A stretch of DNA of 55,881 bases from an uncultured bacterium (GTDB lineage Bacteria > Hydrogenedentota > Hydrogenedentia > Hydrogenedentales > SLHB01): the NCBI GenBank assembly GCA_937928585.1, contig CALEZK010000602.1:1-55881 (forward strand), given 5' to 3'. A model generated the notes under the pieces. It saw nothing but the letters and a program-made list of their open reading frames with translations. It was not told the DNA's origin and ran no database searches. The stretch's first letter is position 1. Every line of letters starts with the position of its first letter. Both the position numbers and the translations under genes were made by a program. This document shows positions 7,483 to 23,988 of this stretch, one piece after another.

Positions 7483-8389
7483 GAGCCTCTAACAAAAGTT
7501 TTGCAAGAAGTTAAAGCATATACAGACACAACCGAGGGCTAGGAACGCCTTGTGTATATCGACGCGACGTTCGTATCGCACGCGGAGTCTACAGAATTGG
7601 TGAAGTCAGCTAATCGTGCGCTCCACGACCCATCGGACGGTTCCAAGGCCTGTGCCGTGCTTGGTGTTGCGATGGGCGATTAACGCGCCGATCCCTCGTT
7701 CGCTCAGTTTGGTTTCATGAGGCGCCGAGTGGTAGGCACGATCCGCAAAGAGATAGCCCGGCCGCTGTTTGGGTCGCCCTCGCTTGCCTCGCACGGGTGG
7801 AATGGCGTCAACGAGCGGGATAAGTTGAGTTACGTCGTGGCGGTTTGCGCCGGTTACGGTGAAGGCAAGCGGAATGCCCTGCCCGTCGGTGACGATATGA
7901 TGTTTGGTGCCGAGTTTGCGGCGGTCCGTCGGATTCGGGCCCGTTTGCTGCCCCCAAAAACCGCGCGGACGCTCGAGGAGTCGACTACGACTCGGGACCA
8001 ATCGAGTTGGTCCGACTTGTGGAGTTCTGCCAGCATCGTTTCGTATACGCGCTGCCACACGCCCAACTCCTGCCACTTGGCCAAACGGCGCCAGCAGGTC
8101 ATTCCAGACCCGCATCCCATTTCTTGCGGAAGGTATTCCCACGGAATTCCCGTGCGCAAGACAAACAGAATTCCTGTAAGCGCACCGCGATTGGGTACGG
8201 CAGGCCGGCCATTGCTCTTGGGCTCTTTGTCCGGCGGCAAAAGGGGTTCGATGAGCGTCCACAGTTCTTCGGGCAGTATCTCGCGAGCCATATGCTCCTC
8301 CATGCAGCCCGTTGCCGTTAATCCGGACACCCTTGCGCAAAATATATATCGGAACTGTTTTCATTAACTTTAGCTTTTGTTAGAGGCTC
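7483..8389 (-). mobile_element. IS5-family (IS427/IS1031-like) insertion sequence, 907 bp
   Basis: It has perfect 16-bp terminal inverted repeats (GAGCCTCTAACAAAAG at 7483-7498, complement at 8374-8389). TTA flanks both ends (7480-7482 and 8390-8392). It encodes a two-frame DDE transposase. Confidence 0.8.
7489..8291 (-). pseudogene. IS5-family transposase (orfA/orfB joined by a -1 frameshift) carrying an in-frame TGA
   Basis: orfA reads MAREILPEELWTLIEPLLPP...SVRAVFGG. It continues in the -1 frame as QQTGPNPTDRRKLGTKHH..., with the shift at a T5G5 run (plus strand CCCCCAAAAA, 7951-7960). TGA at 7606-7608 replaces the conserved Trp of ERT(F/I)(A/S)WL. The frame then continues as LHQFCRLRVRYERRVDIHKAFLALGC... 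to TAG 7489-7491, inside the IR. Confidence 0.75.
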
Positions 8390-8529
8390 TTAGAGTTTTT
8401 CGCCACTGCATTAAGCCTGCAAAACTGCGCTCAAACTGTTTTGCAATGTCTTGTTTCTTCTAGACGAAGATTTCAATGCGGTAAGAAAGCAAACTTGTGA
8501 AATCTCGTCGTTGTCAATCAATTTGTTCA

Positions 8530-10155
8530 TTATCTTTGAGCTGATTGTTGCCTAGTTAAAATGCGCTTCGCATTATTCCAAAAACCAACTCTTTTGCCTG
8601 TAATTGTGTGAACAATTATACGGCCATTATACTGATCCGTGACATGCAGAGCGAAGTCGGCGGTTGAAGGCTCAACAGGAACGTTGAGGCGCCCAATCTT
8701 GTCCTGGCTTGGCAACGTGAATTCGGCCACTGGAACACCATGCTCTGCAATCACGGGGTTAGGGGTCCATATTGGAATACAAACACTGCCAATCTGTGCT
8801 TCAATTCCAATTGGGGCAAGTCTATTAACAAAAGCGCGTGTTTCAGGATTTGTCTGTAGCCCTCCCATTAAGACCATCAAATTACTATCGCCGAGATCAT
8901 TTATGCTGGTTATATTTCCAGAAGACTCCCAGTCCTTTGAGTTTAGACGTATGCCTGCAACTACAAGTATTAAATCTTTTTTGTCAACGTCGTAGCGCAA
9001 TGAAACATAATCTGGGCGCGTGGCTTGTCCAGATAGATCGATAGGCAGGCCGTTTATTTGAAGTACGCCTGCGTCCGTGACCTGATCTATCCAATATAGG
9101 AGTGGGCTCTTGGTAAGGAGTACATTGAACTCCAAGTCGCTCAGGTAACCATAAAGACTAGCTTGTGCTGAATCGAGCGGGGGCGCCTGGCTAAAGTTCC
9201 AGCCGACCCAAAGTAGCTGTTCTCCGTCAGTCGCTGCCTCTTGCCCAAATCTGTTTACACTTACCATGCCAATGTCGTCGATACTAGCGTCCTTCGCAAA
9301 GTCCTTAAACCAACTGGCTAAAGTATCGAATTGACCATCACTATTGTTGCATCGAAATGCGATGCGAAGAGAAATATCGTCGAAAGCAGTAATAACCCTT
9401 TCTAGCGACGTGAGTGTTTTACCGGCTAATTGAGCTTGTATATTCGTATTCTCCAGCACTAAAACTGTTCGCTTAGATTCTGCATCTAATGAATTCAGCA
9501 GTTTCTCCGCTCGTTCTTGATTCGACCTTGCCTCATTTTGCATCAGCGCCGTCTGTTTTTGCGCTGCCTCTAGCAATTCAAGTGTATTAGTAGTATTGGA
9601 ATCAATTCCTGTGAGTAACTGCTCGGCATGCATTTGATTCCGCATAGACTCTTCGCGCAATTGTTCGCCCTGCAAGCTGAGTTGACCTACAATGTTATTC
9701 AAGCCCGTAGTTTGCTCGTCCAGCCTGCCGACGACCACAGCAGTTTGTTGAGATTGGGCCCTTAAGTTTTCCAACAAACGAGTATTGTATGCCTGCTGCT
9801 GCAATGAATCCGAACGCTTCTTTAATTCCTCCGCGATTAGAGCACCAACCGTTATGGTAAGGCCCGCTAATGTCAGAACTAAGACTGTTTTTCCCCATCT
9901 ATTCAGCTTCGGTTTTTCTCCTTCGCTTCTCGCATCCCTAGTTTCAAATAGGATGCCAAGAATTCCCAAACCTCCACTGACGGAGACGCCTGCAAATTTT
10001 AAGATCGTTAGGATTAGATCTAATGAGATCATAGCTCTTCTGCTCCAAAGGCTGTAGTCGAGTACAGTGCTCGCACAATTCACTAGTAATTCTAGTGCTA
10101 GCCAGAATTGAATGGCAAGTACTTCACCACTTGCACGATTCACTGAGATCGACAC
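8530..10155 (-). CDS. hypothetical membrane protein with a long coiled coil and a beta-rich C-terminal domain (orphan)
   Basis: 541-aa ORF with a GTG start at 10155. An alternative ATG at 10032 has GGAG upstream. It has N-terminal hydrophobic segments and a Q/L/E-rich heptad-like region of about 170 aa. I recognise no family. GC is low. Confidence 0.55.
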   Translation of the reverse strand: MSISVNRASGEVLAIQFWLALELLVNCASTVLDYSLWSRRAMISLDLILTILKFAGVSVSGGLGILGILFETRDARSEGEKPKLNRWGKTVLVLTLAGLTITVGALIAEELKKRSDSLQQQAYNTRLLENLRAQSQQTAVVVGRLDEQTTGLNNIVGQLSLQGEQLREESMRNQMHAEQLLTGIDSNTTNTLELLEAAQKQTALMQNEARSNQERAEKLLNSLDAESKRTVLVLENTNIQAQLAGKTLTSLERVITAFDDISLRIAFRCNNSDGQFDTLASWFKDFAKDASIDDIGMVSVNRFGQEAATDGEQLLWVGWNFSQAPPLDSAQASLYGYLSDLEFNVLLTKSPLLYWIDQVTDAGVLQINGLPIDLSGQATRPDYVSLRYDVDKKDLILVVAGIRLNSKDWESSGNITSINDLGDSNLMVLMGGLQTNPETRAFVNRLAPIGIEAQIGSVCIPIWTPNPVIAEHGVPVAEFTLPSQDKIGRLNVPVEPSTADFALHVTDQYNGRIIVHTITGKRVGFWNNAKRILTRQQSAQR

Positions 10156-14200: not shown

Positions 14201-14439
14201 GCAGTTGGGCTCCACGGGGTTCATGTTCGGGGCACGCGCGTGCCCTTGCAGGTATTGTAGGGTCGGGGTGGCGCGGGTGTCAACCGTTCCAGCCCGTATG
14301 CGCACTCATTTCAAGCACGGTGGCTTGTCAACCGATCCGTAACAGGGGCGTTGAAGGTTTGTACCATAGGCGGAGCGGGTCTGTTATTAGACTGCGCAAA
14401 TCGTCCTTGGTTTTCGCGGCATGGCCGGCAGCTTAACGG

Positions 14440-14468
14440 TTGACCACCCATCACCCAGTTGGTATACT
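14440..14468 (+). promoter_or_regulatory. near-consensus sigma-70 promoter TTGACC-N17-TATACT
   Basis: TTGACC at 14440-14445, an exact 17-nt spacer, then TATACT at 14463-14468. It is about 80 nt upstream of the first small peptide ORF. Confidence 0.5.
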
Positions 14469-14549
14469 TCGGGTTACGCGGTGGCAGCATGAACGCGCGC
14501 AGTGCTCTCCAGTGGGGGAATCGCTTGACGCGCTCGGGAGAAATCTACA

Positions 14550-14747
14550 GTGAAGCACCTTCGCACGATCTCGCGCACGCCCCAGCTTGCCGAGGACAGC
14601 TCGACAGACCTTTCGTTCATTCTTTCCGTCTTGAGCCTGATGCTGGGACTGTTTTCGACTTTCCTGGGGTCGTTCACGACGGCGTTTTCCGGTGTGCTTG
14701 AGGCCATCGGCGCTTACAACGAAGTGAAGAATCCGTCCGGTACATAG
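14550..14747 (+). CDS. small peptide P1 (65 aa), hydrophobic Gly/Ser/Thr-rich; candidate precursor peptide or small membrane protein
   Basis: GTG start with GGGAG 9 nt upstream. Translation is MKHLRTISRTPQLAEDSSTDL-SFILSVLSLMLGLFSTFLGSFTTAFSGVLEAIGAYNEVKNPSGT. The N-terminus is paralogous to P2. Confidence 0.5.
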   Translation: MKHLRTISRTPQLAEDSSTDLSFILSVLSLMLGLFSTFLGSFTTAFSGVLEAIGAYNEVKNPSGT

Positions 14748-14819
14748 TAGACAATTGCTGAGGGCATCCGTCGGGGTGCCCGCCAAGAATAGAGTGGAAG
14801 CAACGCAGGAGATTGCGAA

Positions 14820-14969
14820 ATGAAGCATATCCGCCAGATTTCCGTGACGCGCGCCAAAAAGGCGGACGCGCTGGCCGACTTGTACAACACCATCTGGCAG
14901 GCCTGGCTCGACTTCGTGTATACGAAGAAGAACCAGATTTTCGTCGTTCCCGATACGAGCACGGACTAG
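14820..14969 (+). CDS. small peptide P2 (49 aa), Trp/Tyr-rich and amphipathic; candidate precursor peptide (below ORF-track cutoff)
   Basis: ATG 14820 with AGGAG 9 nt upstream. Translation is MKHIRQISVTRAKKADALADL-YNTIWQAWLDFVYTKKNQIFVVPDTSTD, ending at TAG 14967-14969. Confidence 0.5.
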   Translation: MKHIRQISVTRAKKADALADLYNTIWQAWLDFVYTKKNQIFVVPDTSTD

Positions 14970-15178
14970 CCCGCCCGTTTTCGAGCTTTCGGCGTCGGGG
15001 CTTTTGCTACATGCAACCGTCCCGGCGCTATTTTTTTGCCGGACTTTGCCGAGGGGGGGGACTTGCAGCGTGCATTCCGGATCGCCAGCGTTTACCATTA
15101 AGGGAACCTGTGCCGGGCAGGCCTATTCGTATTGATTGCGGGTGATTTGGCCAACCGGCCGCATGCAGCACAATCCAC

Positions 15179-15739
15179 ATGATTTCAGGAAAATACACCA
15201 TCATTCGTTCGGCTGAACCGGACGACGCGTACGCCATGTGGCGGCTCTATGATCCGAGCCGTCCGCGCTCGTTTTTGTTGGGGCCCTCGCGCGAGGTGAT
15301 GATTCCAACGCAGGACGAGATGCGCGAGATGCTGGCGCGGCGCGATGTAATTCAAGGTTCGTTTTTTGCGATCGAAGATCGCGCGGGCGAAGTGTTGGGG
15401 TGTTGCGTGCTGCGGGGCGCGAAAGCGGAATCGGATTTTGCGGAAGTGGTCGTCGCGCTAACGGACGAGAGCAGTTACGATTCGCCGGTCGCGGATGAAG
15501 TGTATGAGTTTCTCAAGAAGCTTGGGTTTGTCGACAAGAAACTAAACAAGCTTGTTGCGCACTGCCTGTGCAATGAAACGGGTTATCGCGCGTTTCTTGT
15601 GCGGCACGGTTTCACGAGCGATGGCATTCAGCGGGAAATGGTGTATACCAAGGGCCGTTACTTCGATCTCGAGTCGCTCTCATTGTTTAACAACGCGCGG
15701 ACAGGAGGGGGCAATGGATCTGCTGTTGCGGCGCCCTGA
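15179..15739 (+). CDS. GNAT-family N-acetyltransferase (1 of 3 in tandem)
   Basis: RimJ/RimL-like layout: YTIRSAEPDDAYAMWRLY, then a central beta-strand/helix region, then C-terminal GFTSDGIQREMVYTKGRYFDL. Confidence 0.7.
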   Translation: MISGKYTIIRSAEPDDAYAMWRLYDPSRPRSFLLGPSREVMIPTQDEMREMLARRDVIQGSFFAIEDRAGEVLGCCVLRGAKAESDFAEVVVALTDESSYDSPVADEVYEFLKKLGFVDKKLNKLVAHCLCNETGYRAFLVRHGFTSDGIQREMVYTKGRYFDLESLSLFNNARTGGGNGSAVAAP

Positions 15740-16262
15740 ACGCCCGGACCTGGACATCATTGTTGATTGGATGGGCGATCCCGAGTTTCGTCACTTTCTG
15801 TTTGGCGATAGCGAGCAGCGGCCGCAGCACATGGGCCAGCAGATGCTTGGCGTGATGAGCAGCGCCCTTGCGCTGCCGATGTCGAGCGCGGGCAACCTGC
15901 TGCTCGAGGATCCGGCGCTGGGGACTGTGGGTCTCGTCATGCTGCACGAAGTAAGCTGGCGCAATCGCTCTTGTTTTCTGGGGCTTTATCTTGCGCCGAC
16001 GCATCGCACGCCCGAGATCATCTCGCGCGCGATCGAGACGGTGTTTGCCTATTGTTTCGAGGAGTTGAATTTGCATCGGGCCGCGATTCGCGTGGACGCG
16101 ACCCAGCCTGATTACGGCGTGGCGTGCGAACGCATTGGCGCGGTCCGCGAGTTTGTTTTTCCTGGCCACGCGATGCGCGATGGCAAACCGGTGGATGTAA
16201 TTGGTTTCGGGGTGTTGCGCGTTGACTTTGACGCGCGGCGCGCGGCTACGGCGGGAGCATAG
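15714..16262 (+). CDS. GNAT-family N-acetyltransferase (2 of 3)
   Basis: I place the start at MDLLLRRPERPDLDIIVDWMGDPEFRHFLFGD (ATG 15714, GGAGG upstream). It overlaps GNAT-1 by 26 nt. It shares the SWRNRSC motif with GNAT-3. Confidence 0.75.
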   Translation: MDLLLRRPERPDLDIIVDWMGDPEFRHFLFGDSEQRPQHMGQQMLGVMSSALALPMSSAGNLLLEDPALGTVGLVMLHEVSWRNRSCFLGLYLAPTHRTPEIISRAIETVFAYCFEELNLHRAAIRVDATQPDYGVACERIGAVREFVFPGHAMRDGKPVDVIGFGVLRVDFDARRAATAGA

Positions 16263-16263
16263 C

Positions 16264-16893
16264 ATGGCCCTTAAATCCAGCGTTTTCATTCGCCGCGCGG
16301 ACCGGGAGGATCTTGAGACGATCGTATCGTGGATGGAAGATCCCGCATTTCAACGCTTCCTCTACGGAGACCCCGCGCGATCGCCGAAGCAAATTCGGGA
16401 ACAAATCGTCGGCATGCTGGGCCGATCCGCGGCGCGCACGTTGCCCGGCGGCATTTACTTCATGGCGGACTCGACCAAGTACGGCCCGGTGGGGTTGTTC
16501 AGCGTCGTCAATATGAGCTGGCGCAATCGATCGTGCAATATCGATTCGTACATTTGCGAAGACCGGCGCAACGGCATGTTCAGCACGGTGGCGTTTTATC
16601 GCGTGCTGGAATACTGCTTCCACGTGTTGAACATGAACCGCATCAACATTTACATCTACGGCTTCAATACGCGCTCCTGGCGCATATTTGAATTGACCGG
16701 GGCGAAACAGGAGCTGGTGTTGCGCGAGCACGTCGCGCGGGACGGCGAACTGTACGAGATGTACGGCTACGGCCTCATTCGGCCCGAGTGGGACAAGTTT
16801 CGCGAGTTTTTCCTGAAGCGCTTCAAGGGAATCGATCTGCAAACCATGATCGCGGATCTGAAGAGCGAGGAAGCGGCGAAGGTGTCCACCTGA
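16264..16893 (+). CDS. GNAT-family N-acetyltransferase (3 of 3)
   Basis: ATG 16264 is 1 nt after the TAG of GNAT-2. The sequence IRRADREDLETIVSWMEDPAFQRFLYGD...SWRNRSC...GAKQELVLREHVARDGELYEMYGYG is a clear paralogue of GNAT-2. Confidence 0.8.
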   Translation: MALKSSVFIRRADREDLETIVSWMEDPAFQRFLYGDPARSPKQIREQIVGMLGRSAARTLPGGIYFMADSTKYGPVGLFSVVNMSWRNRSCNIDSYICEDRRNGMFSTVAFYRVLEYCFHVLNMNRINIYIYGFNTRSWRIFELTGAKQELVLREHVARDGELYEMYGYGLIRPEWDKFREFFLKRFKGIDLQTMIADLKSEEAAKVST

Positions 16894-17627
16894 TGGCCGA
16901 GCAATTACTTTGGGGCCTGCTCGCGACACACATCGTGTATTCGCTGTTCGCGAATAGCAGATCGAAAAGCGAACACCCGCAGGGCCTTGCCCGCACCATA
17001 CACGTGCTGTTGCAGGCGCCGCTGCTTTGGGTGTCGGTTTACATCGGCATTCATGCGGGGGAGTTTTCGCGCGAGCTTGTGTCGCCGGTATACATCGTGG
17101 CGGGGTTGCTTGCGGGGCACCTCATATTCGGGTTCTCAATTTTGTTGACGCATCTTTCCTGGCGTGACGCCTGGGCGCATTTTTTTGATTTCGGCCCGTT
17201 ATGGAACTTCACGATGGACAGCCCGGTCGTATTGACGCGCTTCTTCGGCGTGGCGTTTGCGGAGGAACTGATCTGGCGCGTCGCGGCCCAGACGCTCGCG
17301 ATAGAATTCCTTTCGCAATACATGAGCAACACGGCGGCGGCGGCGCTTGGTATCGTATTGATTGCGGCGGGATTTGTCGTCGTACACAAGCATTTCTTTG
17401 AAAATACTTGGTACATATCGGTTGAGTTTGTGGCGTTTGCGCTGTTGATTGGCGCGCTTTATTACTGGACGGGCAGCTTCATCCTCGTAATTATCATTCA
17501 CGCGTTGCGCGATATCGAGATTGCATATCTTGAGTATCTCGGCAAAGTGGAAGAACTCGGTAGCGAAGCGGAAGCCGCGCTTGCCATCGAGCAGGCCTAT
17601 CGTCCGCGGCGAATGGAGAATACATGA
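16893..17627 (+). CDS. CPBP-family (CAAX/Abi-type) intramembrane glutamic protease
   Basis: The start overlaps the GNAT-3 stop (TGATG). It is a polytopic membrane protein with the motifs FAEELIWRVAAQ (EExxxR), VVHKHF and IIIHALRD. Confidence 0.8.
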   Translation: MAEQLLWGLLATHIVYSLFANSRSKSEHPQGLARTIHVLLQAPLLWVSVYIGIHAGEFSRELVSPVYIVAGLLAGHLIFGFSILLTHLSWRDAWAHFFDFGPLWNFTMDSPVVLTRFFGVAFAEELIWRVAAQTLAIEFLSQYMSNTAAAALGIVLIAAGFVVVHKHFFENTWYISVEFVAFALLIGALYYWTGSFILVIIIHALRDIEIAYLEYLGKVEELGSEAEAALAIEQAYRPRRMENT

Positions 17628-18664
17628 GCGCCACCGCCGCAGTGCAGCTCTGCGATGTAGATAAGATATTTCATACGCGCCATTTCTTCACGAAGCACGA
17701 AGAAACGGGCAAGCGCCGCCTTTATTACAAGAAAACGGTGCACGCGGTTGACCATATCTCGCTGGAGATCAAGCCCGGCGAGATTCTTGGTTTGCTCGGC
17801 CGAAATGGCGCGGGAAAAACGACGACGGTAAAGATGATCTCGGGATTGGTCAAGCCGAATTCCGGGACGGTTTACGTTGACGGCATGGATGTCGAGAAGA
17901 AGCGCTTGAAGGTGCTGCGCAAGATAGGCGTGGTGCTGGAAGGGACGCGCACGTGCGTTTGGCCGCTGACGCCGCTAGAAAACCTTTCCTACTTTGGAAA
18001 TCTGCGCGATGTGAAGGGCCCTGTGTTGAAAGAGCGGAGCGCGGAACTGCTGGAGTTCATCGGTCTGAAGGACAAGATGAACGTGGAGGTGCGCAAGCTT
18101 TCGCGCGGCCAGAAGCAGCGCCTGGCCATTTGTATCGCGCTGATTACGGATCCGCCGGTGTTGCTGCTGGACGAGCCGACCACGGGCCTTGATGTGCAGA
18201 GCAGCCGCGCGATCAAGGACAAGCTGATCGAGATGACGCGTGAACGCGGCAAGTGCGTGTTGGTGACGACGCACGACATGAACACCGCGCAGGAAGTTTG
18301 CGACCGCGTGGCGATCGTTCACGATGGGAAACTGGCGGCGTGCAAGCCGACGAACGAGTTGATCGGCCTGTTTTCCGATCAGACGTATCACCTGCACGTT
18401 GATCGTATTCCGGATCTTGCCGGCGTACGCGCGGTGCCGGGCGTGCTGGCCTCTGACGCGCTGGAAGACGAGGGCACTGGGCCGCGCGTTTCGGTTCAGT
18501 TTTGCGCGGACGAGTCGGAGCGTTCTTCCGCGCTTTATTCGGTGATGGAACGCCTTCGAGGCAGCGGCGTCACGCTGCGCTCGATTAACCACGCGCAACA
18601 AACGCTGGAAGACGTGTTTCTTCGCATTACGGAAAAGACCAGCAAGAACGGGGAGAAGGTTTAG
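17624..18664 (+). CDS. ABC transporter ATP-binding protein (ABC-2/DrrA-like)
   Basis: ATGA overlap with the CPBP gene. Walker A is GRNGAGKTT, the signature is LSRGQKQRL, and Walker B is LLLDEPTTGLD. A C-terminal accessory domain is present. Confidence 0.9.
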   Translation: MSATAAVQLCDVDKIFHTRHFFTKHEETGKRRLYYKKTVHAVDHISLEIKPGEILGLLGRNGAGKTTTVKMISGLVKPNSGTVYVDGMDVEKKRLKVLRKIGVVLEGTRTCVWPLTPLENLSYFGNLRDVKGPVLKERSAELLEFIGLKDKMNVEVRKLSRGQKQRLAICIALITDPPVLLLDEPTTGLDVQSSRAIKDKLIEMTRERGKCVLVTTHDMNTAQEVCDRVAIVHDGKLAACKPTNELIGLFSDQTYHLHVDRIPDLAGVRAVPGVLASDALEDEGTGPRVSVQFCADESERSSALYSVMERLRGSGVTLRSINHAQQTLEDVFLRITEKTSKNGEKV

Positions 18665-18666
18665 TT

Positions 18667-19605
18667 ATGGGCTTCTTCCTGGTACTGAAGGCCGAGGTCG
18701 TCCGTTCGATGATTGTGACGCGACGATACTGGTTTGCTACGGTGACGGCGCTGTTTGTGGCGTGCGTTATGTTTTCTGCCTTTATCAATATTTTTCTGTC
18801 CGGGATTGTGGCCGGCGCCGATATGGCAGGCGTTGCCGTGGACCGGGCACTCGGATTGGTCATCGGTATTTTTGCGTTCAGCATGGTTGGCATGTTCAGC
18901 ACGGGTCTTGCAGGCATGGCGCGCAGCGGCGAGCTCGAACAGGTGTATATGAGCCCGCATGGACTCATCACCAACTTCATGGCGCGGTCTACCGTTGCAA
19001 CGGTCTTGAGCATCATAACGTGGACGATACTGTTGATGTTTGTGTCTTCCGCGTTTTCGGCGGAGACAGACGGAGCCAAGGCCGACGAGCAAGTTCAAAC
19101 CGCGCATGCCGATGCGGCGGCTGTTGCGGAAGCTACGCCGACGGAGTCCGCGCCCGGAGCTGCAGGGGAAGATTCGGGAAAGAAAATGAAGGCGGACGGG
19201 AAAATTCACGCCGACCCCTTGCCTATGGTGGTGTTGTTCCTGCTTACGTTTTTCAGCATGACCGGATTCGGCTTCATGATTGGCGGGCTTGTGCTCGTGT
19301 TCAAACAGATAGGCCAGGTTGCGGTGATATTGCGCATGATCATGATGGGCGTTGCGTGGAAAGCGAGTGATGCGCTTTACGATCAACATTGGCTTTTGCA
19401 ATGGGTCGCGCACGCGGTGCCTGTGACGGACGCGGCGATTTGCCTGAAACTGGTTCTGCTGCAAAACTACGGCACGCATATTTTCACGCACCCGTCATTC
19501 CTGTTTCTGCTTGCGAGCGTTGCCATCTGGACGCCGATCGGTTTGATCTGCTTTAAGGCGATGGAGAATTGGGCGCGTAGCAAAGGGACCCTGGGAGCGT
19601 TTTGA
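18667..19605 (+). CDS. ABC-2-type transporter permease
   Basis: It starts 2 nt after the ATPase stop. It has multiple TM segments and an Ala/Asp/Glu-rich loop of about 54 aa in the middle. Confidence 0.7.
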   Translation: MGFFLVLKAEVVRSMIVTRRYWFATVTALFVACVMFSAFINIFLSGIVAGADMAGVAVDRALGLVIGIFAFSMVGMFSTGLAGMARSGELEQVYMSPHGLITNFMARSTVATVLSIITWTILLMFVSSAFSAETDGAKADEQVQTAHADAAAVAEATPTESAPGAAGEDSGKKMKADGKIHADPLPMVVLFLLTFFSMTGFGFMIGGLVLVFKQIGQVAVILRMIMMGVAWKASDALYDQHWLLQWVAHAVPVTDAAICLKLVLLQNYGTHIFTHPSFLFLLASVAIWTPIGLICFKAMENWARSKGTLGAF

Positions 19606-21527
19606 TGAGTCGCGACGCGCTACATCGGTTTGTGGAGAGCGAACGGCGATTTGCCGTCGACCCGGAGACCTGTTTTTGCTTCGAGTGCGACGAGATCTCG
19701 TGGGATGTGCTTGAGTACTATCCGCACGCGTCGGTGAACCGCATCTATCACCTGCTTGGCGAACGCTACAGCGTGAAAGAGCTTGAGGAAGTCATCGGCG
19801 AGCTTGAGTGGCTGCGTTCGACGCGCGCGATTCTCCCCGCGCCGAAAAAGGACGACGTTCAGAAGGAAATCCAATTCGAGCGTGGCCTGAAGCGCGTTGC
19901 TATTTCGCTGCCGCGCGAGGGCACGGAAGCTGCCGTAAAGAAAAAAGGCTGGTTCAGCCAGGGCGCGACCGTGATGTCGAGTTCGGCGCGCGATATTGGC
20001 CATGACGCGATTGCTTTGTTGTTGGGCCGTGCGGGCGAGCAAAAGGAACTCGCCATCGAGTTTGTAGAAGAAGGGTTCATTCATAATCCTGAACTGGTGG
20101 CTGATTTGTGCGCACACGCGATGAAGTGCGGCAAGCTGGCAGGCAAGAAACTGACGGCTTCGGTTTTGATCCAGAACATCGAAGTGTCGAAAGTGCCGGC
20201 CGCGCTGGATGGGCACACCGTGAGCGCCGCCCTCGAGTTTACCGAAACCGCGGACATGCTGGCGCTGTTGCGTCCCTTTGCAAAAATCGCTGGTGAAGCA
20301 TTTGCGCGCCTCGTCAAGATTGTGCAGCCGGACGCGCCGGGCGTGCATGGTCGCATCATCGTGCGGCCGAACCATCCGAATTTCGCGGGCGTTGTCGAGG
20401 AGCTTGAGAAACAAGGCTTCACAACAATCGATTTGGATTTGGACGGCGCATATGTGGCGAATCCCTCATTGAATCCAAGTGAAATGCTCGATGGCCTTCG
20501 CGCCACCGCCGTCTATTACGCGAAGCGGCTGCTTCAGCATAAGTACTATCGCGTCGATCCCATCGCGCCGCTTTTCTATCGGATCTACGATGGGTCGCCT
20601 TCCCGGCGCACGGATCCGGCGGGCACAAATGAATTGGCAGTCGGCGGCGACGGCGGCGTGTATCCGTCGCGGCGCTTGATGGGCGTTGAGGCCTACAAAC
20701 TTGGCACCGTGATGGGTGGCGAGATTGATGAGCGCATCCGCGCGCGGTTCGACGAAGTCGGCGCTTCAACCACGGGGGTATGCCGCCGATGCTGGGCGCG
20801 CAACTTGTGCGGCGGCGGCAATACGGCAGTGCACCACGCGTTGACTGGATCGCACCGCACGCCAAGCGAACCTTGGTGTGAGGCGCAGCGTGCGTGGATG
20901 ATGTCCGCGGTGAGCGCGTTTAATCTGTTGTCGTCACATGGCGTGAATTTCACGCGGGTATATCGCACCTTGACGCGGACGACGCGTCCGTCTCTTCTAA
21001 CCGTGGTGCGCGCGATGTTCCGGATGACAATTGGCATGCGGCCGATTGAAGAAACAGACGCGGAGATGCTGGCCAATTGGGAGAATTGGAACCCTGCTTC
21101 GTATTTCCTGTTCACCGAAGGGGGCATCATGGTCACGACGAAGTATGATCGTGAAATGGACGCGCTGCATCCTTCCGGCGGTGAGCAGGAGATGATTCTG
21201 ATCAAAAAGGACGGCACGGCGATTGGGTTGATTAAGCTGCGGCCCGATCGCGTTCCCGGCGCCGCTCAGGGCTGGCTGTACCTGCATAACGAGGCCGACT
21301 ACGCGTCTGACGAGGTGCGCAAAGGTTTCCGCGCTCTGCTGCGGGAAGCAGGCGGCCAACAGTCTATCCGGAGGTTGACCCTTCCCGCGTCTGCCCAGGA
21401 AGTTGGGTTGCAGAAGTTTCTGGAATCAATTGGTTTTGCGAAAGAGGGCACGCTGCGCGAGGCACTCTTTGCGCACGACACCTATCATGACGTGCACCTG
21501 TATGGTATCGCGACCGACAAGTTGTAG
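19605..21527 (+). CDS. radical-SAM/SPASM maturase-like protein without the CX3CX2C motif, fused to a C-terminal GNAT domain
   Basis: ATG 19605 overlaps the permease stop (TGATG). The region PAGTNELAVGGDGGVYPSRRL...YKLGTV...CRRCWARNLCGGGN...PWCE is colinear with the SPASM/twitch region of anSME-type enzymes. The central part looks like a degenerate radical-SAM barrel (ELAIEFVEEGFIHNPELV in place of F.GGEPLL). The last 170 aa or so are RimJ-like GNAT (IEETDAEMLANW...GFAKEGTLREALF). Confidence 0.65.
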   Translation: MSRDALHRFVESERRFAVDPETCFCFECDEISWDVLEYYPHASVNRIYHLLGERYSVKELEEVIGELEWLRSTRAILPAPKKDDVQKEIQFERGLKRVAISLPREGTEAAVKKKGWFSQGATVMSSSARDIGHDAIALLLGRAGEQKELAIEFVEEGFIHNPELVADLCAHAMKCGKLAGKKLTASVLIQNIEVSKVPAALDGHTVSAALEFTETADMLALLRPFAKIAGEAFARLVKIVQPDAPGVHGRIIVRPNHPNFAGVVEELEKQGFTTIDLDLDGAYVANPSLNPSEMLDGLRATAVYYAKRLLQHKYYRVDPIAPLFYRIYDGSPSRRTDPAGTNELAVGGDGGVYPSRRLMGVEAYKLGTVMGGEIDERIRARFDEVGASTTGVCRRCWARNLCGGGNTAVHHALTGSHRTPSEPWCEAQRAWMMSAVSAFNLLSSHGVNFTRVYRTLTRTTRPSLLTVVRAMFRMTIGMRPIEETDAEMLANWENWNPASYFLFTEGGIMVTTKYDREMDALHPSGGEQEMILIKKDGTAIGLIKLRPDRVPGAAQGWLYLHNEADYASDEVRKGFRALLREAGGQQSIRRLTLPASAQEVGLQKFLESIGFAKEGTLREALFAHDTYHDVHLYGIATDKL

Positions 21528-22031: not shown

Positions 22032-22229
22032 ATGCTGGTGGGGATCTTCGGTGGGATTGTCTCGTTATTGATTCTCGCGATCTATATTGCGAGCGTCATT
22101 TGGTCCTACACGGATGCAGAACGCCGGGGGAAATCCGGAATCCTGGTGGCGCTGCTGGTGCTGCTGTTGGTTTGGCCGGCGGGACTTATCGTTTGGCTGC
22201 TGATTCGCCCGAATGGGAGGCGAAGTTGA
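22032..22229 (+). CDS. small two-TM membrane protein (PLDc_N-like)
   Basis: 65 aa with two hydrophobic helices flanking YTDAERRGKSG. This resembles the PLD-nuclease N-terminal-domain small proteins. Confidence 0.5.
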   Translation: MLVGIFGGIVSLLILAIYIASVIWSYTDAERRGKSGILVALLVLLLVWPAGLIVWLLIRPNGRRS

Positions 22230-22326: not shown

Positions 22327-23988
22327 GTGAGTATTAACCGGGATCGGCGAAGCGCCGGTCTAATTTTATTGTTGGCCTTCGCGCTGGGCGTCTGTGTGTT
22401 TGCGGTCACGCAGATTTCCTACGGCATCGTTGAAGACCGGGCCTTGGCGCCGAGCGAATCGCTCGGTTTTGTGTCCCTGGCCATGGATATCTACAGCTAC
22501 TATTCTTTCATTCACCAGGCTGCAGGCGGCAGTTTCTTCTTTCGCAACAACATGACGCACGAAACGTGCAGCGCGGCGTTTATCAACCTGCAATGGTGGC
22601 TTGCGGGGCGGTGCATGGCATGGTTCGACTGGAGTCCGCAGTTCTTGTTCATCGTGTGGCGGTTTGCGGGTTCGATTGCGCTGATGCTGGGTTTTGCTGT
22701 GTTGGCGCTGGTAACGTTGGAGAAGCCGCATCAACAAGTGGTTGCATTGCTGATGTGCGCATTCGGCGGCGGATTTGGCTGGGCAATTACGATCTTCGGC
22801 GCGATGGGTCTTCTAGATCTCAGCGACACCTTTGGGCTGCGCAATCCGGCAATGGATTTAATTACGGCGATTCATCCATTCGGACAGATCATGAAGAACC
22901 CGCATTACAGCTTGCCGCACGGCACGCTGTTGCTTTTCCTCGCGTGTTACGTAATGGGTGAGCGCTCCGGTTGCGCGCGATGGTATGCGGTCGCGGCAGG
23001 GGTTGCGGTGCTACAAGGTCTTTTTCGACCTTACGACACGATAACGATCATGGCGATGATTCCATTTTTCATTGGCGTCGAATCGCTTACGTCGCGAAAG
23101 CTGGATGTTCGGCGCGCTACATTGCGCTTATTGCCCGCTATTGCGAGCGCCCCCTTGCTTTTTTATTACTACTACCTCTTTTCGATTCATCCGATATTCA
23201 CGTATTGGGCGGAACAAGGCAAGCAGCCGCCAGCTTCCATGTTCTGGCACACGCTGAGCCTCGGCCTTGTCGGATTGCTGTGCATTTACCGTGTTGCGCG
23301 GCGGAAGCGCCTGCCGCTTGCCGGTTCGTGGGAACGCATGCTCGCGGTGTTTGCCGCGACCGTGTTGATCCTGTATCACGGCAATCATCTCACGCGCTTG
23401 TTGTCGTTCTCCCCACAGATTGGCATACCGCTGGTCTCGGTGCTGATCCTCCTATCGATGCCTGTATTGTCCGCGCTTGCGGCGCGCTGGTCGCGATTTG
23501 GAAAGCGCGGCTTGGCTGCTGCTTTGGTGGGCTTTCTGATTCTGAACGCGCTGAGCAGTCCATTGTACGTTCAGTGGAGCGGTAGTATCGGCGCGATTAC
23601 GCCGCGAAACTACATAACGCCGAGTGAACGCGAGGCGATACTGTGGCTGGCCGAACGCGCGGAACCGGATGATGTCATTCTGAGTGGCGAGCCGATGGGC
23701 GCGCGCATTGCCTTTCTAACGCCTTTGCGCGTGGCGATGGGCCACTGGGCGTTGACGCCAAATGTCAAGTTGCTCAAACGAAAATTCGAGCGATTCGCGA
23801 TTGGCGATCTTCCCCCGGAACGCGCGGTGGAATTCATCAAAGAGGTGCAACCGCGATACATTCTGCTAACCGATATCGAGGACGCGGGAAAGCCCGCGTA
23901 CTATCGGAAAAATGCGGGCGCGGAACGCGTTTTTGCGAACGACGATACGATAATTTACGAAGTCGTCGGGCCGCCGCAAACGCGATAG
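22327..23988 (+). CDS. large polytopic membrane protein with a C-terminal soluble domain (possible GT-C-type glycosyltransferase)
   Basis: 553-aa ORF with a GTG start. It has at least 10 hydrophobic segments followed by a soluble tail of about 130 aa. The function is only a fold-level guess. Confidence 0.45.
   Translation: MSINRDRRSAGLILLLAFALGVCVFAVTQISYGIVEDRALAPSESLGFVSLAMDIYSYYSFIHQAAGGSFFFRNNMTHETCSAAFINLQWWLAGRCMAWFDWSPQFLFIVWRFAGSIALMLGFAVLALVTLEKPHQQVVALLMCAFGGGFGWAITIFGAMGLLDLSDTFGLRNPAMDLITAIHPFGQIMKNPHYSLPHGTLLLFLACYVMGERSGCARWYAVAAGVAVLQGLFRPYDTITIMAMIPFFIGVESLTSRKLDVRRATLRLLPAIASAPLLFYYYYLFSIHPIFTYWAEQGKQPPASMFWHTLSLGLVGLLCIYRVARRKRLPLAGSWERMLAVFAATVLILYHGNHLTRLLSFSPQIGIPLVSVLILLSMPVLSALAARWSRFGKRGLAAALVGFLILNALSSPLYVQWSGSIGAITPRNYITPSEREAILWLAERAEPDDVILSGEPMGARIAFLTPLRVAMGHWALTPNVKLLKRKFERFAIGDLPPERAVEFIKEVQPRYILLTDIEDAGKPAYYRKNAGAERVFANDDTIIYEVVGPPQTR

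Follow-up and report, generated by a model that had tools for sequence, protein, structure and literature searches.

The closest described relative of the system reported here is the CteA–CteB (ScfA–ScfB) pathway, in which the leader of the CteA precursor was bound as a β-strand to the leader-binding domain of the maturase CteB (PMC8326336). SCIFF peptides were conserved clade-wide in the Clostridia, and this conservation was argued to be a sign of a physiological role (PMC8326336). The locus analyzed in this study is located at positions 14440–21527 of contig CALEZK010000602.1 (assembly GCA_937928585.1; Hydrogenedentota, SLHB01); the window, meaning the whole stretch of DNA that was analyzed, is 55,881 nt long. 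All nine open reading frames (ORFs) of the locus lie on the plus strand, and they encode two small peptides (pep1 and pep2), three stand-alone GNAT-family proteins (GNAT1–3), a CPBP intramembrane protease, an ATP-binding cassette (ABC) ATPase, an ABC-2 permease and a fusion protein. We consider, with a probability of roughly 0.7, that the locus is a maturation and export operon for peptides of the RiPP kind (synthesized on ribosomes, then modified post-translationally), and that it was derived from a ranthipeptide (SCIFF/CteB-like) cluster. A first-pass annotation of the sequence had already read it as a RiPP- or bacteriocin-like modification and export locus with leader-sharing precursors, and this reading was supported by the leader-bearing ORFs next to the enzyme genes, by the selection acting on them and by the CteB-type domain of the fusion protein.

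Residues 1–435 of the fusion protein were homologous to CteB from the leader-binding domain through the barrel to the SPASM domain, and the precursors in the window shared the MKHI[KR]x[IL] start of CteA. The two window peptides begin with MKHLRTIS and MKHIRQIS, and the CteA substrate chain in the CteB crystal 5WGG (MKHIKILNGSTLKDSLKKGGC) begins with MKHIKILN. The link to CteA emerged only from a query with a SCIFF-like sequence, to which the true CteA chain was the answer. Both systems were conserved across a clade and not scattered. However, the fusion protein has no CxxxCxxC motif, no GGE motif and no auxiliary-cluster-I cysteines, whereas the SPASM domain of the CteB type holds two auxiliary [4Fe-4S] clusters. 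The SCIFF core contains six cysteines in ~45 residues, whereas the cores of the operon are not Cys-rich, so that thioether chemistry would be impossible in it. Additional components of the operon are the GNAT joined to the fusion protein, two or three further GNATs that stand alone, an ABC-2 transporter and a CPBP protease. Thus, among the features that define ranthipeptides and SCIFF, the CteB-type leader-binding domain and the MKHIK-type leader were present, while the CxxxCxxC/GGE motifs, the two auxiliary clusters and the Cys-rich core were absent.

The nearest intact radical S-adenosylmethionine (SAM) relatives of the fusion protein in a library of 1.84 billion proteins were P0174 and P0179, which contained CxxxCxxC and had the SCIFF maturase model as their best match, below its cut-off. 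Both were encoded in gene clusters (L042 and L043) that comprised two or three Cys-rich precursors of the form MKHIKLLN...L-P-x-x-A, the intact maturase, a CPBP gene, a gene for a DrrA-like ABC ATPase and one for a membrane component. In L042 this component was a Pfam ABC-2 permease; in L043 it was a 264-aa gene without annotation, and the CPBP gene stood at the end of the cluster. The precursors of these two clusters (L042, 2423–3914; L043, 993–2888) were 59–88 aa long, with cores rich in Cys and in Tyr/Asp. No NCBIfam model matched the precursor peptides of L042 and L043, and the two clusters appear undescribed. Homology to the window counterparts was seen for the CPBP proteins and ABC ATPases of both clusters and for the permease of L042. 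The window operon resembled them in the MKHIK..LN...P-x-x-A leader, the multi-copy precursor arrays and the CPBP and DrrA-like genes (in the same order in L042), and differed from them in that they possess intact radical-SAM/SPASM maturases and Cys-rich cores and have no GNATs. The shared leader and the homology of the CPBP and ABC proteins indicated that the window operon would be a derived form of that architecture. On the sequence evidence, leader, leader-binding domain, protease and exporter were all retained in it, radical chemistry and Cys-rich cores disappeared, and three or four GNAT domains were added.

In the skf locus of Bacillus subtilis, a small precursor is encoded together with SkfC, which is a CPBP protein, the ABC pair SkfE/SkfF and a radical-SAM-family protein that has a leader-binding domain. 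The sactisynthase of the locus, SkfB, is active and carries a twitch domain; a thioredoxin-like gene is also included, and there are no GNATs. The first-pass annotation had assigned the skf architecture to the window locus. The small precursor, the CPBP protein and the ABC pair agreed with this, as did the presence of a leader-binding protein of the radical-SAM family, but the closest relatives turned out to be SCIFF/CteB and the cousins linked with CPBP and ABC-2 genes. In the operon the radical chemistry was lost and GNATs were added, and the sequence of the fusion protein was closer to CteB than to SkfB. Pfam and NCBIfam scans found no thioredoxin-like domain in the nine window products.

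In other RiPP pathways, GNATs encoded beside the precursors acylate Lys or Orn side chains, or N-termini after removal of the leader (PMC13647313; PMC8784127). They are found in the selidamides (KspN, PhaN and NpuN), goadvionins, lipolanthines and lipoavitides, and N-acetylation occurs in microviridin and goadsporin. The operon is similar in that a GNAT gene adjoins the precursor genes and acyl transfer is predicted. However, the GNATs of those pathways are stand-alone enzymes that occur with LanM, avionin or YcaO machinery and with NHLP/Nif11 or other leaders, and none of them is fused to a degenerate radical-SAM/SPASM protein. Compared with the selidamides, the operon has GNATs and a conserved Lys, but its leader is of the MKH type, without a GG motif or a match to NHLP/Nif11, and LanM is absent. 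A more distant parallel is provided by HlyC and CyaC, GNAT-like enzymes that acylate an internal Lys of a membrane-active RTX toxin before its export by an ABC transporter. The acylate-then-export logic is an analogy only, since the two cases differ in the family of the acyltransferase, in substrate size and in the secretion system (type I for the toxins), and no homology was found or is claimed.

The operon nevertheless displayed the general organization of a RiPP cluster, with putative precursors of conserved leader and variable core beside a predicted leader-binding domain, a protease and an exporter. It lies outside the definitions of the ranthipeptide, sactipeptide and selidamide systems, yet it clearly works within the RiPP scheme. 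Literature searches found no description of the system, and all of its members carry generic names.

Distribution of the operon and its precursor peptides

A pattern-limited scan with one genome per species yielded 36 loci (L001–L036) from at least 36 genomes, one copy per genome. Apart from a few records named Nitrospiraceae or FCB group, all of them belonged to Hydrogenedentota. The gene order was syntenic throughout L001–L036 (precursors, GNAT1, GNAT2 where present, GNAT3, CPBP, ABC ATPase, permease and fusion), and the identity of the fusion protein in these loci ranged from 89 to 40%. More distant members of the operon (L037, L040 and L044) were found at 25–29% fusion identity. The flanking genes of the window were shared only by L001 (flgM, downstream) and L002 (smg/topA, upstream), which indicated that the operon is passed on as a block, whereas the genes around it change. 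An exhaustive search of the 1.84 billion representative proteins returned 52 fusion representatives at E ≤1e-30, some of which were fragments. The full-length members reached down to 28% identity, after which the scores fell sharply to ordinary radical-SAM/SPASM maturases of 450–490 aa. All fusion homologues were ~600–680 aa long, and the named ones came from Candidatus Hydrogenedentes or Hydrogenedentota.

A few loci showed additional genes around the operon. A TolC-like outer-membrane factor was encoded downstream of it in L037 (10258–11871) and an AcrB-like RND pump upstream of it in L018 (3248–6469). Each was considered as a conserved partner and rejected, because neither was present in any other locus. 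In L039 (967–8199), a gene for a 23S_rRNA_IVP four-helix-bundle protein was inserted between the permease and the fusion gene, and the latter was followed by three GT2 glycosyltransferase and two methyltransferase genes.

Of the 25 loci with sufficient upstream DNA, 23 contained one to six leader-sharing ORFs of 38–75 aa immediately upstream of GNAT1 and in its orientation, as detected with a leader profile (the exceptions, L018 and L037, are weighed below). These 23 included the distant loci L040, with a fusion identity of 25–28% and five peptides, and L044, with ~29% and three peptides. Elsewhere in these loci, the matches of the leader profile were noise only (E above 2). The first-pass annotation had asked whether small ORFs with an MKH-type leader co-occur with syntenic operons, and had stated that the idea would fail if homologous operons consistently lacked them or if they were not conserved; they did co-occur, and neither ground for failure applied. 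The leader of the family, 14–17 aa in length, reads M-K-H-[ILV]-[RK]-x-[ILV]-[ST], usually followed by P-x-x-A.

The ORF nearest to GNAT1 was always of the pep2 type. Its core, A-D-A-F-x-D-F-x-N-A-x-W-R-A-W-x-D-F-x-Y-x-K-K-N-E, was more conserved than the enzymes of the operon, and the conserved core of pep2 itself was D-A-L-A-D-L-Y-N-x-x-W-Q-A-W-L-D-F-V-Y-x-K-K-N. Homologues of pep2 formed at least 134 sequence clusters, none of which had a functional name and every organism-named one of which came from Hydrogenedentes; one entry, P0282, was 100% identical to pep2. Orthologues of pep1 were present in L002, L003, L008 and L028, and both its GGGAG ribosome-binding site and its GTG start were conserved in the alignment of relatives. 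The ratio of nonsynonymous to synonymous substitution rates (dN/dS) was 0.05–0.25 for pep2 and ~0.22 for pep1, with synonymous sites near saturation. Together with the conserved ribosome-binding site, start and position, these values show that both are genuine genes under purifying selection. The leader shared by the two ORFs was confirmed as well.

Other peptide classes recurred across lineages, including a hydrophobic class, of which pep1 is a member, and a two-cysteine class. All 42 catalogued precursors (42/42) carried a Lys at the boundary of core and tail (K or KK, with E, N, D or T as the next residue), and the tail was short and polar. The boundary Lys was present across peptide classes with unrelated cores, and it is a plausible acylation or cleavage site. 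The cores were neutral or anionic; those of the pep2 type were moderately amphipathic and the others plainly hydrophobic, and the helical hydrophobic moment of pep2 was greater than in shuffled controls. A search of 12 precursor peptides against NCBIfam and Pfam, with the E limit raised to 10, gave no relevant family, and a search with the 25-column leader profile against the sequences of solved structures found nothing. The window peptides contained no cysteine, and the only Cys-bearing class has two. Precursors of the two-cysteine class, with the motif C..[ST]DYQ..LCF or C..D.LQARFCF, were encoded beside a maturase that lost its radical chemistry.

Fusion protein, accessory enzymes and exporter

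A profile built from 118 homologues aligned residues 4–435 of the fusion protein to the full length of CteB 5WGG, starting at CteB residue 5 (E 9e-41), and a profile search matched residues 521–635 to RimL, YdaF and RimJ (RimL 1S7K/1Z9U, E 5e-6). The AlphaFold2 model of the protein had a mean pLDDT of 85 and was disordered or of low confidence only at residues 106–124, where the cluster loop would lie, and in the linker at 455–473; residues 7–72 formed three strands followed by three helices. The top Foldseek match of the model was CteB (E 1e-17), followed by SpeG, YdaF and RimL, for which the TM-scores normalised to the target (TMt) were ~0.72–0.81 among the matches listed. The SPASM model TIGR04085 scored 32.7 bits against a cut-off of 27, and Pfam Radical_SAM gave no match to the fusion protein, as the first-pass annotation had expected. 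The fused GNAT matched Pfam Acetyltransf_4 weakly.

In the alignment to CteB, HISHDCNLRCKYCFA corresponded to LPRE...KRGWFG, a cysteine-free loop in the fusion protein, and FFGGEP corresponded to FVEE(G/E), so that the SAM-binding GGE was lost. No cysteine was conserved in the former SAM-cluster region across the 118 homologues, in agreement with the predicted loss of the SAM-cluster cysteines. For the auxiliary clusters, we took the ligand assignment to be that of the published anSME and CteB structures, with the register aligned to CteB and anSME 4K37. The ligand set of auxiliary cluster II (C393, C396, C402 and C425) was invariant in the 118 homologues, and the positions of auxiliary cluster I were occupied by Asp/Pro, Ser and Asn/Thr/Ala. 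The maturase-like protein had been described as cluster-less, which does not fit these four invariant cysteines. The fusion protein probably still binds a single [4Fe-4S] cluster, auxiliary cluster II, whose role may be purely structural. Because SAM cluster, GGE motif and auxiliary cluster I are all gone, the protein is predicted to be incapable of radical-SAM chemistry.

A further group of cysteines was observed in strand β3 of the leader-binding domain, where residues 23–28 (window 19671–19688) read C-F-C-F-E-C. C23 and C25 were invariant and C28 nearly so in the 118 homologues, and the equivalent strand of CteB pairs with the leader. Possible roles of the triad are metal binding, disulfide formation or a contribution to the binding interface. 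In a divergent clade (P0156, P0157 and P0163), both this triad and the SAM-cluster cysteines were missing and all SPASM cysteines were kept. Such an outgroup suggests a stepwise decay of the maturase cysteines. The candidate leader peptide as the ligand of the N-terminal domain (residues 1–90) was MKHIRQISVTRA.

The GNAT fold was supported for all four domains by Pfam, Foldseek and profile searches, and they belonged to the amine-acetylating SpeG/RimL/RimJ/YdaF clade. The prediction of four GNAT domains was thus confirmed, with Acetyltransf_3/4 in GNAT1–3 and, weakly, at the C-terminus of the fusion protein. GNAT2 was found only in the closer relatives (L002, L003, L005, L006, L008, L028 and L035). 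GNAT3 was among the best-conserved proteins of the operon, with 51–87% identity over L001–L036 and an invariant SWRNRSC motif, and it also matched the PseH model weakly.

The CPBP protein of the window contained the motifs EELIWR, FVVVH and HALRD. EExxxR and FxxxH were intact in all 17 orthologues checked, and HxxxN/D was found in 17/17 by an unanchored pattern search, in which L028 and L040 showed only one of the two usual matches. With these motifs and the profile matches listed in Table 1, the predictions of a CPBP protease, an ABC ATPase and an ABC-2 permease all held, and the CPBP protein may cleave the precursor peptides. The window permease carried a lineage-specific, low-complexity insert of ~45 aa rich in Ala, Asp and Glu (window ~19050–19210; …AETDGAKADEQVQTAHADAAAVAEATPTESAPGAAGEDSGKK…). 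Its tblastn alignments to most other loci covered ~265 codons, against 312 aa in the window, and the permease genes called in distant loci encoded 265–281 aa.

Gene layout and surroundings

The nine ORFs, tight junctions and domain assignments of the first-pass annotation were reproduced by the ORF coordinates and by Pfam/NCBIfam profile searches (Table 1). From GNAT1 to the fusion gene, the junctions were, in order, a 26-nt overlap, a 1-nt gap, TGATG, ATGA, a 2-nt gap and TGATG; an alternative start of the fusion gene was a TTG at 19602. A spacer of 209 nt with a hairpin and a U-tract set the precursors apart from GNAT1. Therefore, tight coupling was confined to the seven enzyme and transport genes, for which the proposal of one translationally coupled operon stood, while it did not extend to the precursors. 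Similarly, a Shine–Dalgarno sequence of the GGAG type had been placed 9 nt upstream of each small ORF; this distance was correct for pep1, but it was 8 nt for pep2.

A consensus scan detected three promoter-like sites in the region against 3.4 expected, so that the near-consensus promoter ahead of pep1 was at chance level when taken alone. However, the alignment showed that TTGAC-N17-(TGn)TATACT was kept in seven of eight related loci and TATACT in all eight (8/8), with divergent flanks, and the promoter proposed in the first-pass annotation was upheld by this conservation. The hairpin in the spacer was detected by folding and escaped the consensus terminator scan, because its loop was too long. 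A similar hairpin with a U-tract was located ~50–60 nt past the stop codon of the pep2-type gene (83 nt in L024) in 12 of 22 loci, with differing stem sequences. Placed between precursor and enzyme genes, the window hairpin would work as an attenuator or intrinsic terminator, and a hairpin after the precursors is the usual layout where a precursor gene is transcribed in excess over its enzymes.

The neighboring genes were smg (DUF494), topA and flgM, as originally reported. The GC content was uniform across the locus, consistent with the earlier remark that it is not obviously on a mobile element. A mobile island was rejected on the grounds of this uniform GC content and of the inheritance of the operon as a unit amid changing flanks. 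On the minus strand at 14254–14283, a near-consensus divergent promoter-like sequence (TTGACA-18-TACAAT) was observed upstream of smg/DUF494, back to back with the operon promoter region. Downstream of flgM, two ORFs were conserved in L001: one encoded a 65-aa two-helix membrane protein with only a weak GT87-like match (22032–22229), and the other a 553-aa polytopic membrane protein without a Pfam match (22327–23988). At 8000–10000 of the window, the GC content fell to 0.47, compared with 0.55–0.60 in the rest of the 11–28 kb region.

Table 1. Positions of the genes, domains and signals of the locus; positions refer to the window unless a locus is named.
Feature	Position	Strand	Description
Sigma-70-type promoter	14440..14468	+	TTGACC-17-TATACT, TG upstream of the -10 box
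pep1	14550..14747	+	65 aa, GTG start; leader MKHLRTISRTPQLA, hydrophobic 45-aa core, K-NPSGT tail
pep2	14820..14969	+	49 aa, ATG start; leader MKHIRQISVTRAKKA, amphipathic core, polar tail
Hairpin, GC-rich	14991..15037	+	11+4 bp, dG -26 kcal/mol, followed by seven T (folding)
GNAT1	15179..15739	+	186 aa, YdaF/SpeG/RimJ clade; Acetyltransf_4 E 1e-11; 1NSL E 1e-7 (profile search, solved structures)
GNAT2	15714..16262	+	182 aa; Acetyltransf_3 E 2e-11; paralogue of GNAT3
GNAT3	16264..16893	+	209 aa, SpeG-like; Acetyltransf_3 E 2.5e-14; SpeG 8FV0 E 2.6e-18
CPBP/Rce1-like glutamic intramembrane protease	16893..17627	+	244 aa; PF02517 E 1.4e-9
ABC transporter ATPase, DrrA-like	17624..18664	+	346 aa; ABC_tran E 4e-32, TIGR01188 drrA E 2e-71
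ABC-2 permease	18667..19605	+	312 aa; ABC2_membrane_3 E 5.5e-8; syntenic in all loci
Fusion gene	19605-21527	+	640 aa, last gene of the operon
Leader-binding winged-helix domain (similar to a RiPP recognition element)	19605..19829	+	Residues 1-75 of the fusion protein; aligns to the CteB N-terminus
Degenerate radical-SAM barrel	19887..20609	+	Residues ~95-335; CxxxCxxC replaced by LPREGTEAAVKKKGWF, GGE lost
SPASM domain	20610..20939	+	Residues 336-445; auxiliary-cluster-II Cys kept, auxiliary-cluster-I Cys absent
C-terminal GNAT, RimL/SpeG/YdaF-like	21027..21527	+	Residues 475-640 and stop codon; disordered linker 455-473
Two-Cys precursor, L021	2942-3109		
Two-Cys precursor, L024	5413-5592		
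Two-Cys precursor, L025	5406-5630		
Two-Cys precursor, L026	5414-5632		
Two-Cys precursor, L029	5313-5480		
Two-Cys precursor, L040	4337-4522		

Alternative explanations and proposed pathway

Several observations weigh against a RiPP-type maturation and export operon. An adjacent precursor was missing in two loci, L037 and L018, and L018 also had no GNAT1 and began at GNAT3. The resemblance of the leader to that of CteA spans only ~8 residues, and neither the peptides nor the leader profile matched any curated family. Several cores match a membrane-spanning segment in length and hydrophobicity and are neutral or anionic, and such cores could be resident membrane peptides instead of exported products. 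The pyrophosphate loop Q/R-x-x-G-x-G/A was absent in GNAT1 and in the fused GNAT, which had D-Y-A-S-D-E at the position of RimL Q-G-Q-G-I-M, and it was partial in GNAT3 (R-R-N-G-M-F). Some of the GNAT domains may therefore be non-catalytic, or the donor may be other than acetyl-CoA. Every chemical step of the pathway proposed below is one that we infer.

The variable hydrophobic cores of several precursors per locus, and the common linkage of CPBP/Abi proteins and ABC-2 pairs with bacteriocin loci, would also suit class-II-type bacteriocins or pheromones that act on membranes without being modified, with the CPBP protein and the ABC-2 transporter serving processing and/or immunity and the GNATs providing self-protection by acetylating, and so inactivating, the peptide within the producing cell. 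The GNATs are indeed RimL-like, and the RimL-like C-terminal domain of MccE inactivates processed microcin C by acetylation. We regard this explanation as unlikely, because the cores were neutral or anionic and not cationic, and because the pep2 core was conserved above the enzymes throughout the phylum, unlike peptides of inter-strain antagonism. In addition, immunity should require less machinery than three or four conserved GNAT domains, of which one is joined to a leader-binding domain, and the single-copy operon was inherited as a unit without a compositional sign of mobility. A defence-system reading was rejected as well, since the PADLOC library returned generic ABC-ATPase matches only.

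It seems improbable as well that the substrate of the GNATs and of the ABC-2 transporter is not a peptide but, for example, a polyamine, an amino sugar or an envelope component, and that the small ORFs encode membrane proteins serving as transporter subunits or regulators. Such a role would leave the CteB-type leader-binding domain retained in the fusion protein unexplained, while the MKHI[KR]...PxxA leader was common to Cys-rich precursors beside intact radical-SAM maturases, and a precursor copy number of 1–6 with a terminator-like hairpin is typical of substrates and not of subunits. This has to be set against the best match of GNAT3 to SpeG and its weak match to PseH, several Lys-flanked cores of membrane-spanning length and hydrophobicity, the absence of adjacent peptides in L037 and L018, and the glycosyltransferases that follow the fusion gene in L039. 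That the small ORFs arose by chance, or are regulatory upstream ORFs of enzymes with an unrelated role, is scarcely credible. They are only 49–65 aa long, belong to no curated family and follow a promoter that is at chance level on its own, but dN/dS was 0.05–0.25 over the whole length with saturated synonymous sites, pep2 had at least 134 homologue clusters, the ribosome-binding site, start and promoter were conserved, and the position was kept in 23 of 25 loci. In effect, the conservation data refute this reading.

For the RiPP-type operon that we favor, we propose a pathway of six steps, of which the first three are drawn from sequence evidence and the last three are conjectural. The sigma-70 promoter would transcribe the two precursor genes, and the hairpin with its U-tract probably passes only part of the transcripts into the seven downstream genes (step 1). 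Each predicted precursor consists of a leader, a hydrophobic or amphipathic core and a boundary Lys with a short polar tail (step 2). The fusion protein would be a former radical-SAM/SPASM maturase that keeps the leader-binding domain and probably one [4Fe-4S] cluster (step 3). It may then serve as a scaffold that binds the leader and offers the peptide both to the GNAT domain of the same chain and to the stand-alone GNATs (step 4); the latter may form hetero-oligomers with the fused GNAT, which is possible because RimL, YdaF and SpeG are oligomeric. The GNATs would transfer an acyl group, by default guess acetyl, to a primary amine of the peptide, that is, the boundary Lys and/or the new N-terminus (step 5). 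Finally, the CPBP protease may remove the leader after the invariant Ala, and possibly the tail too, and the DrrAB-type ABC-2 transporter would export the product (step 6).

The phylum-wide inheritance and the conservation of the pep2 core above the enzymes made a physiological factor likelier than a fast-evolving antibiotic. Judging from these patterns, the product is more likely to be such a factor, for example a signal or an envelope-active or surface-active peptide, than a variable bacteriocin. More tentatively, and with somewhat less than even confidence, we suggest that the operon represents a new RiPP class, in which a non-radical, leader-binding scaffold with a single cluster and a GNAT domain, together with partner GNATs, acylates the boundary Lys and/or the N-terminus to produce phylum-wide physiological peptides.

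If this is true, a peptide maturase of the radical-SAM/SPASM type has become a scaffold without radical chemistry that is joined to an acyltransferase, and we know of no earlier case of such a change. A RiPP pathway would then have swapped its chemistry yet kept leader recognition, processing and export, which bears on the evolution of these pathways and on the engineering of leader-guided acylation. The analysis also defines more than 130 clusters of unnamed small proteins and ~50 clusters of unnamed 600–680-aa proteins, families whose present annotation does not go beyond "SPASM domain-containing protein" or "hypothetical protein". Pep2, the fusion protein and the GNATs provide a concrete test system, and, for a phylum without a cultured model, the operon points to a trait that is conserved and probably important.

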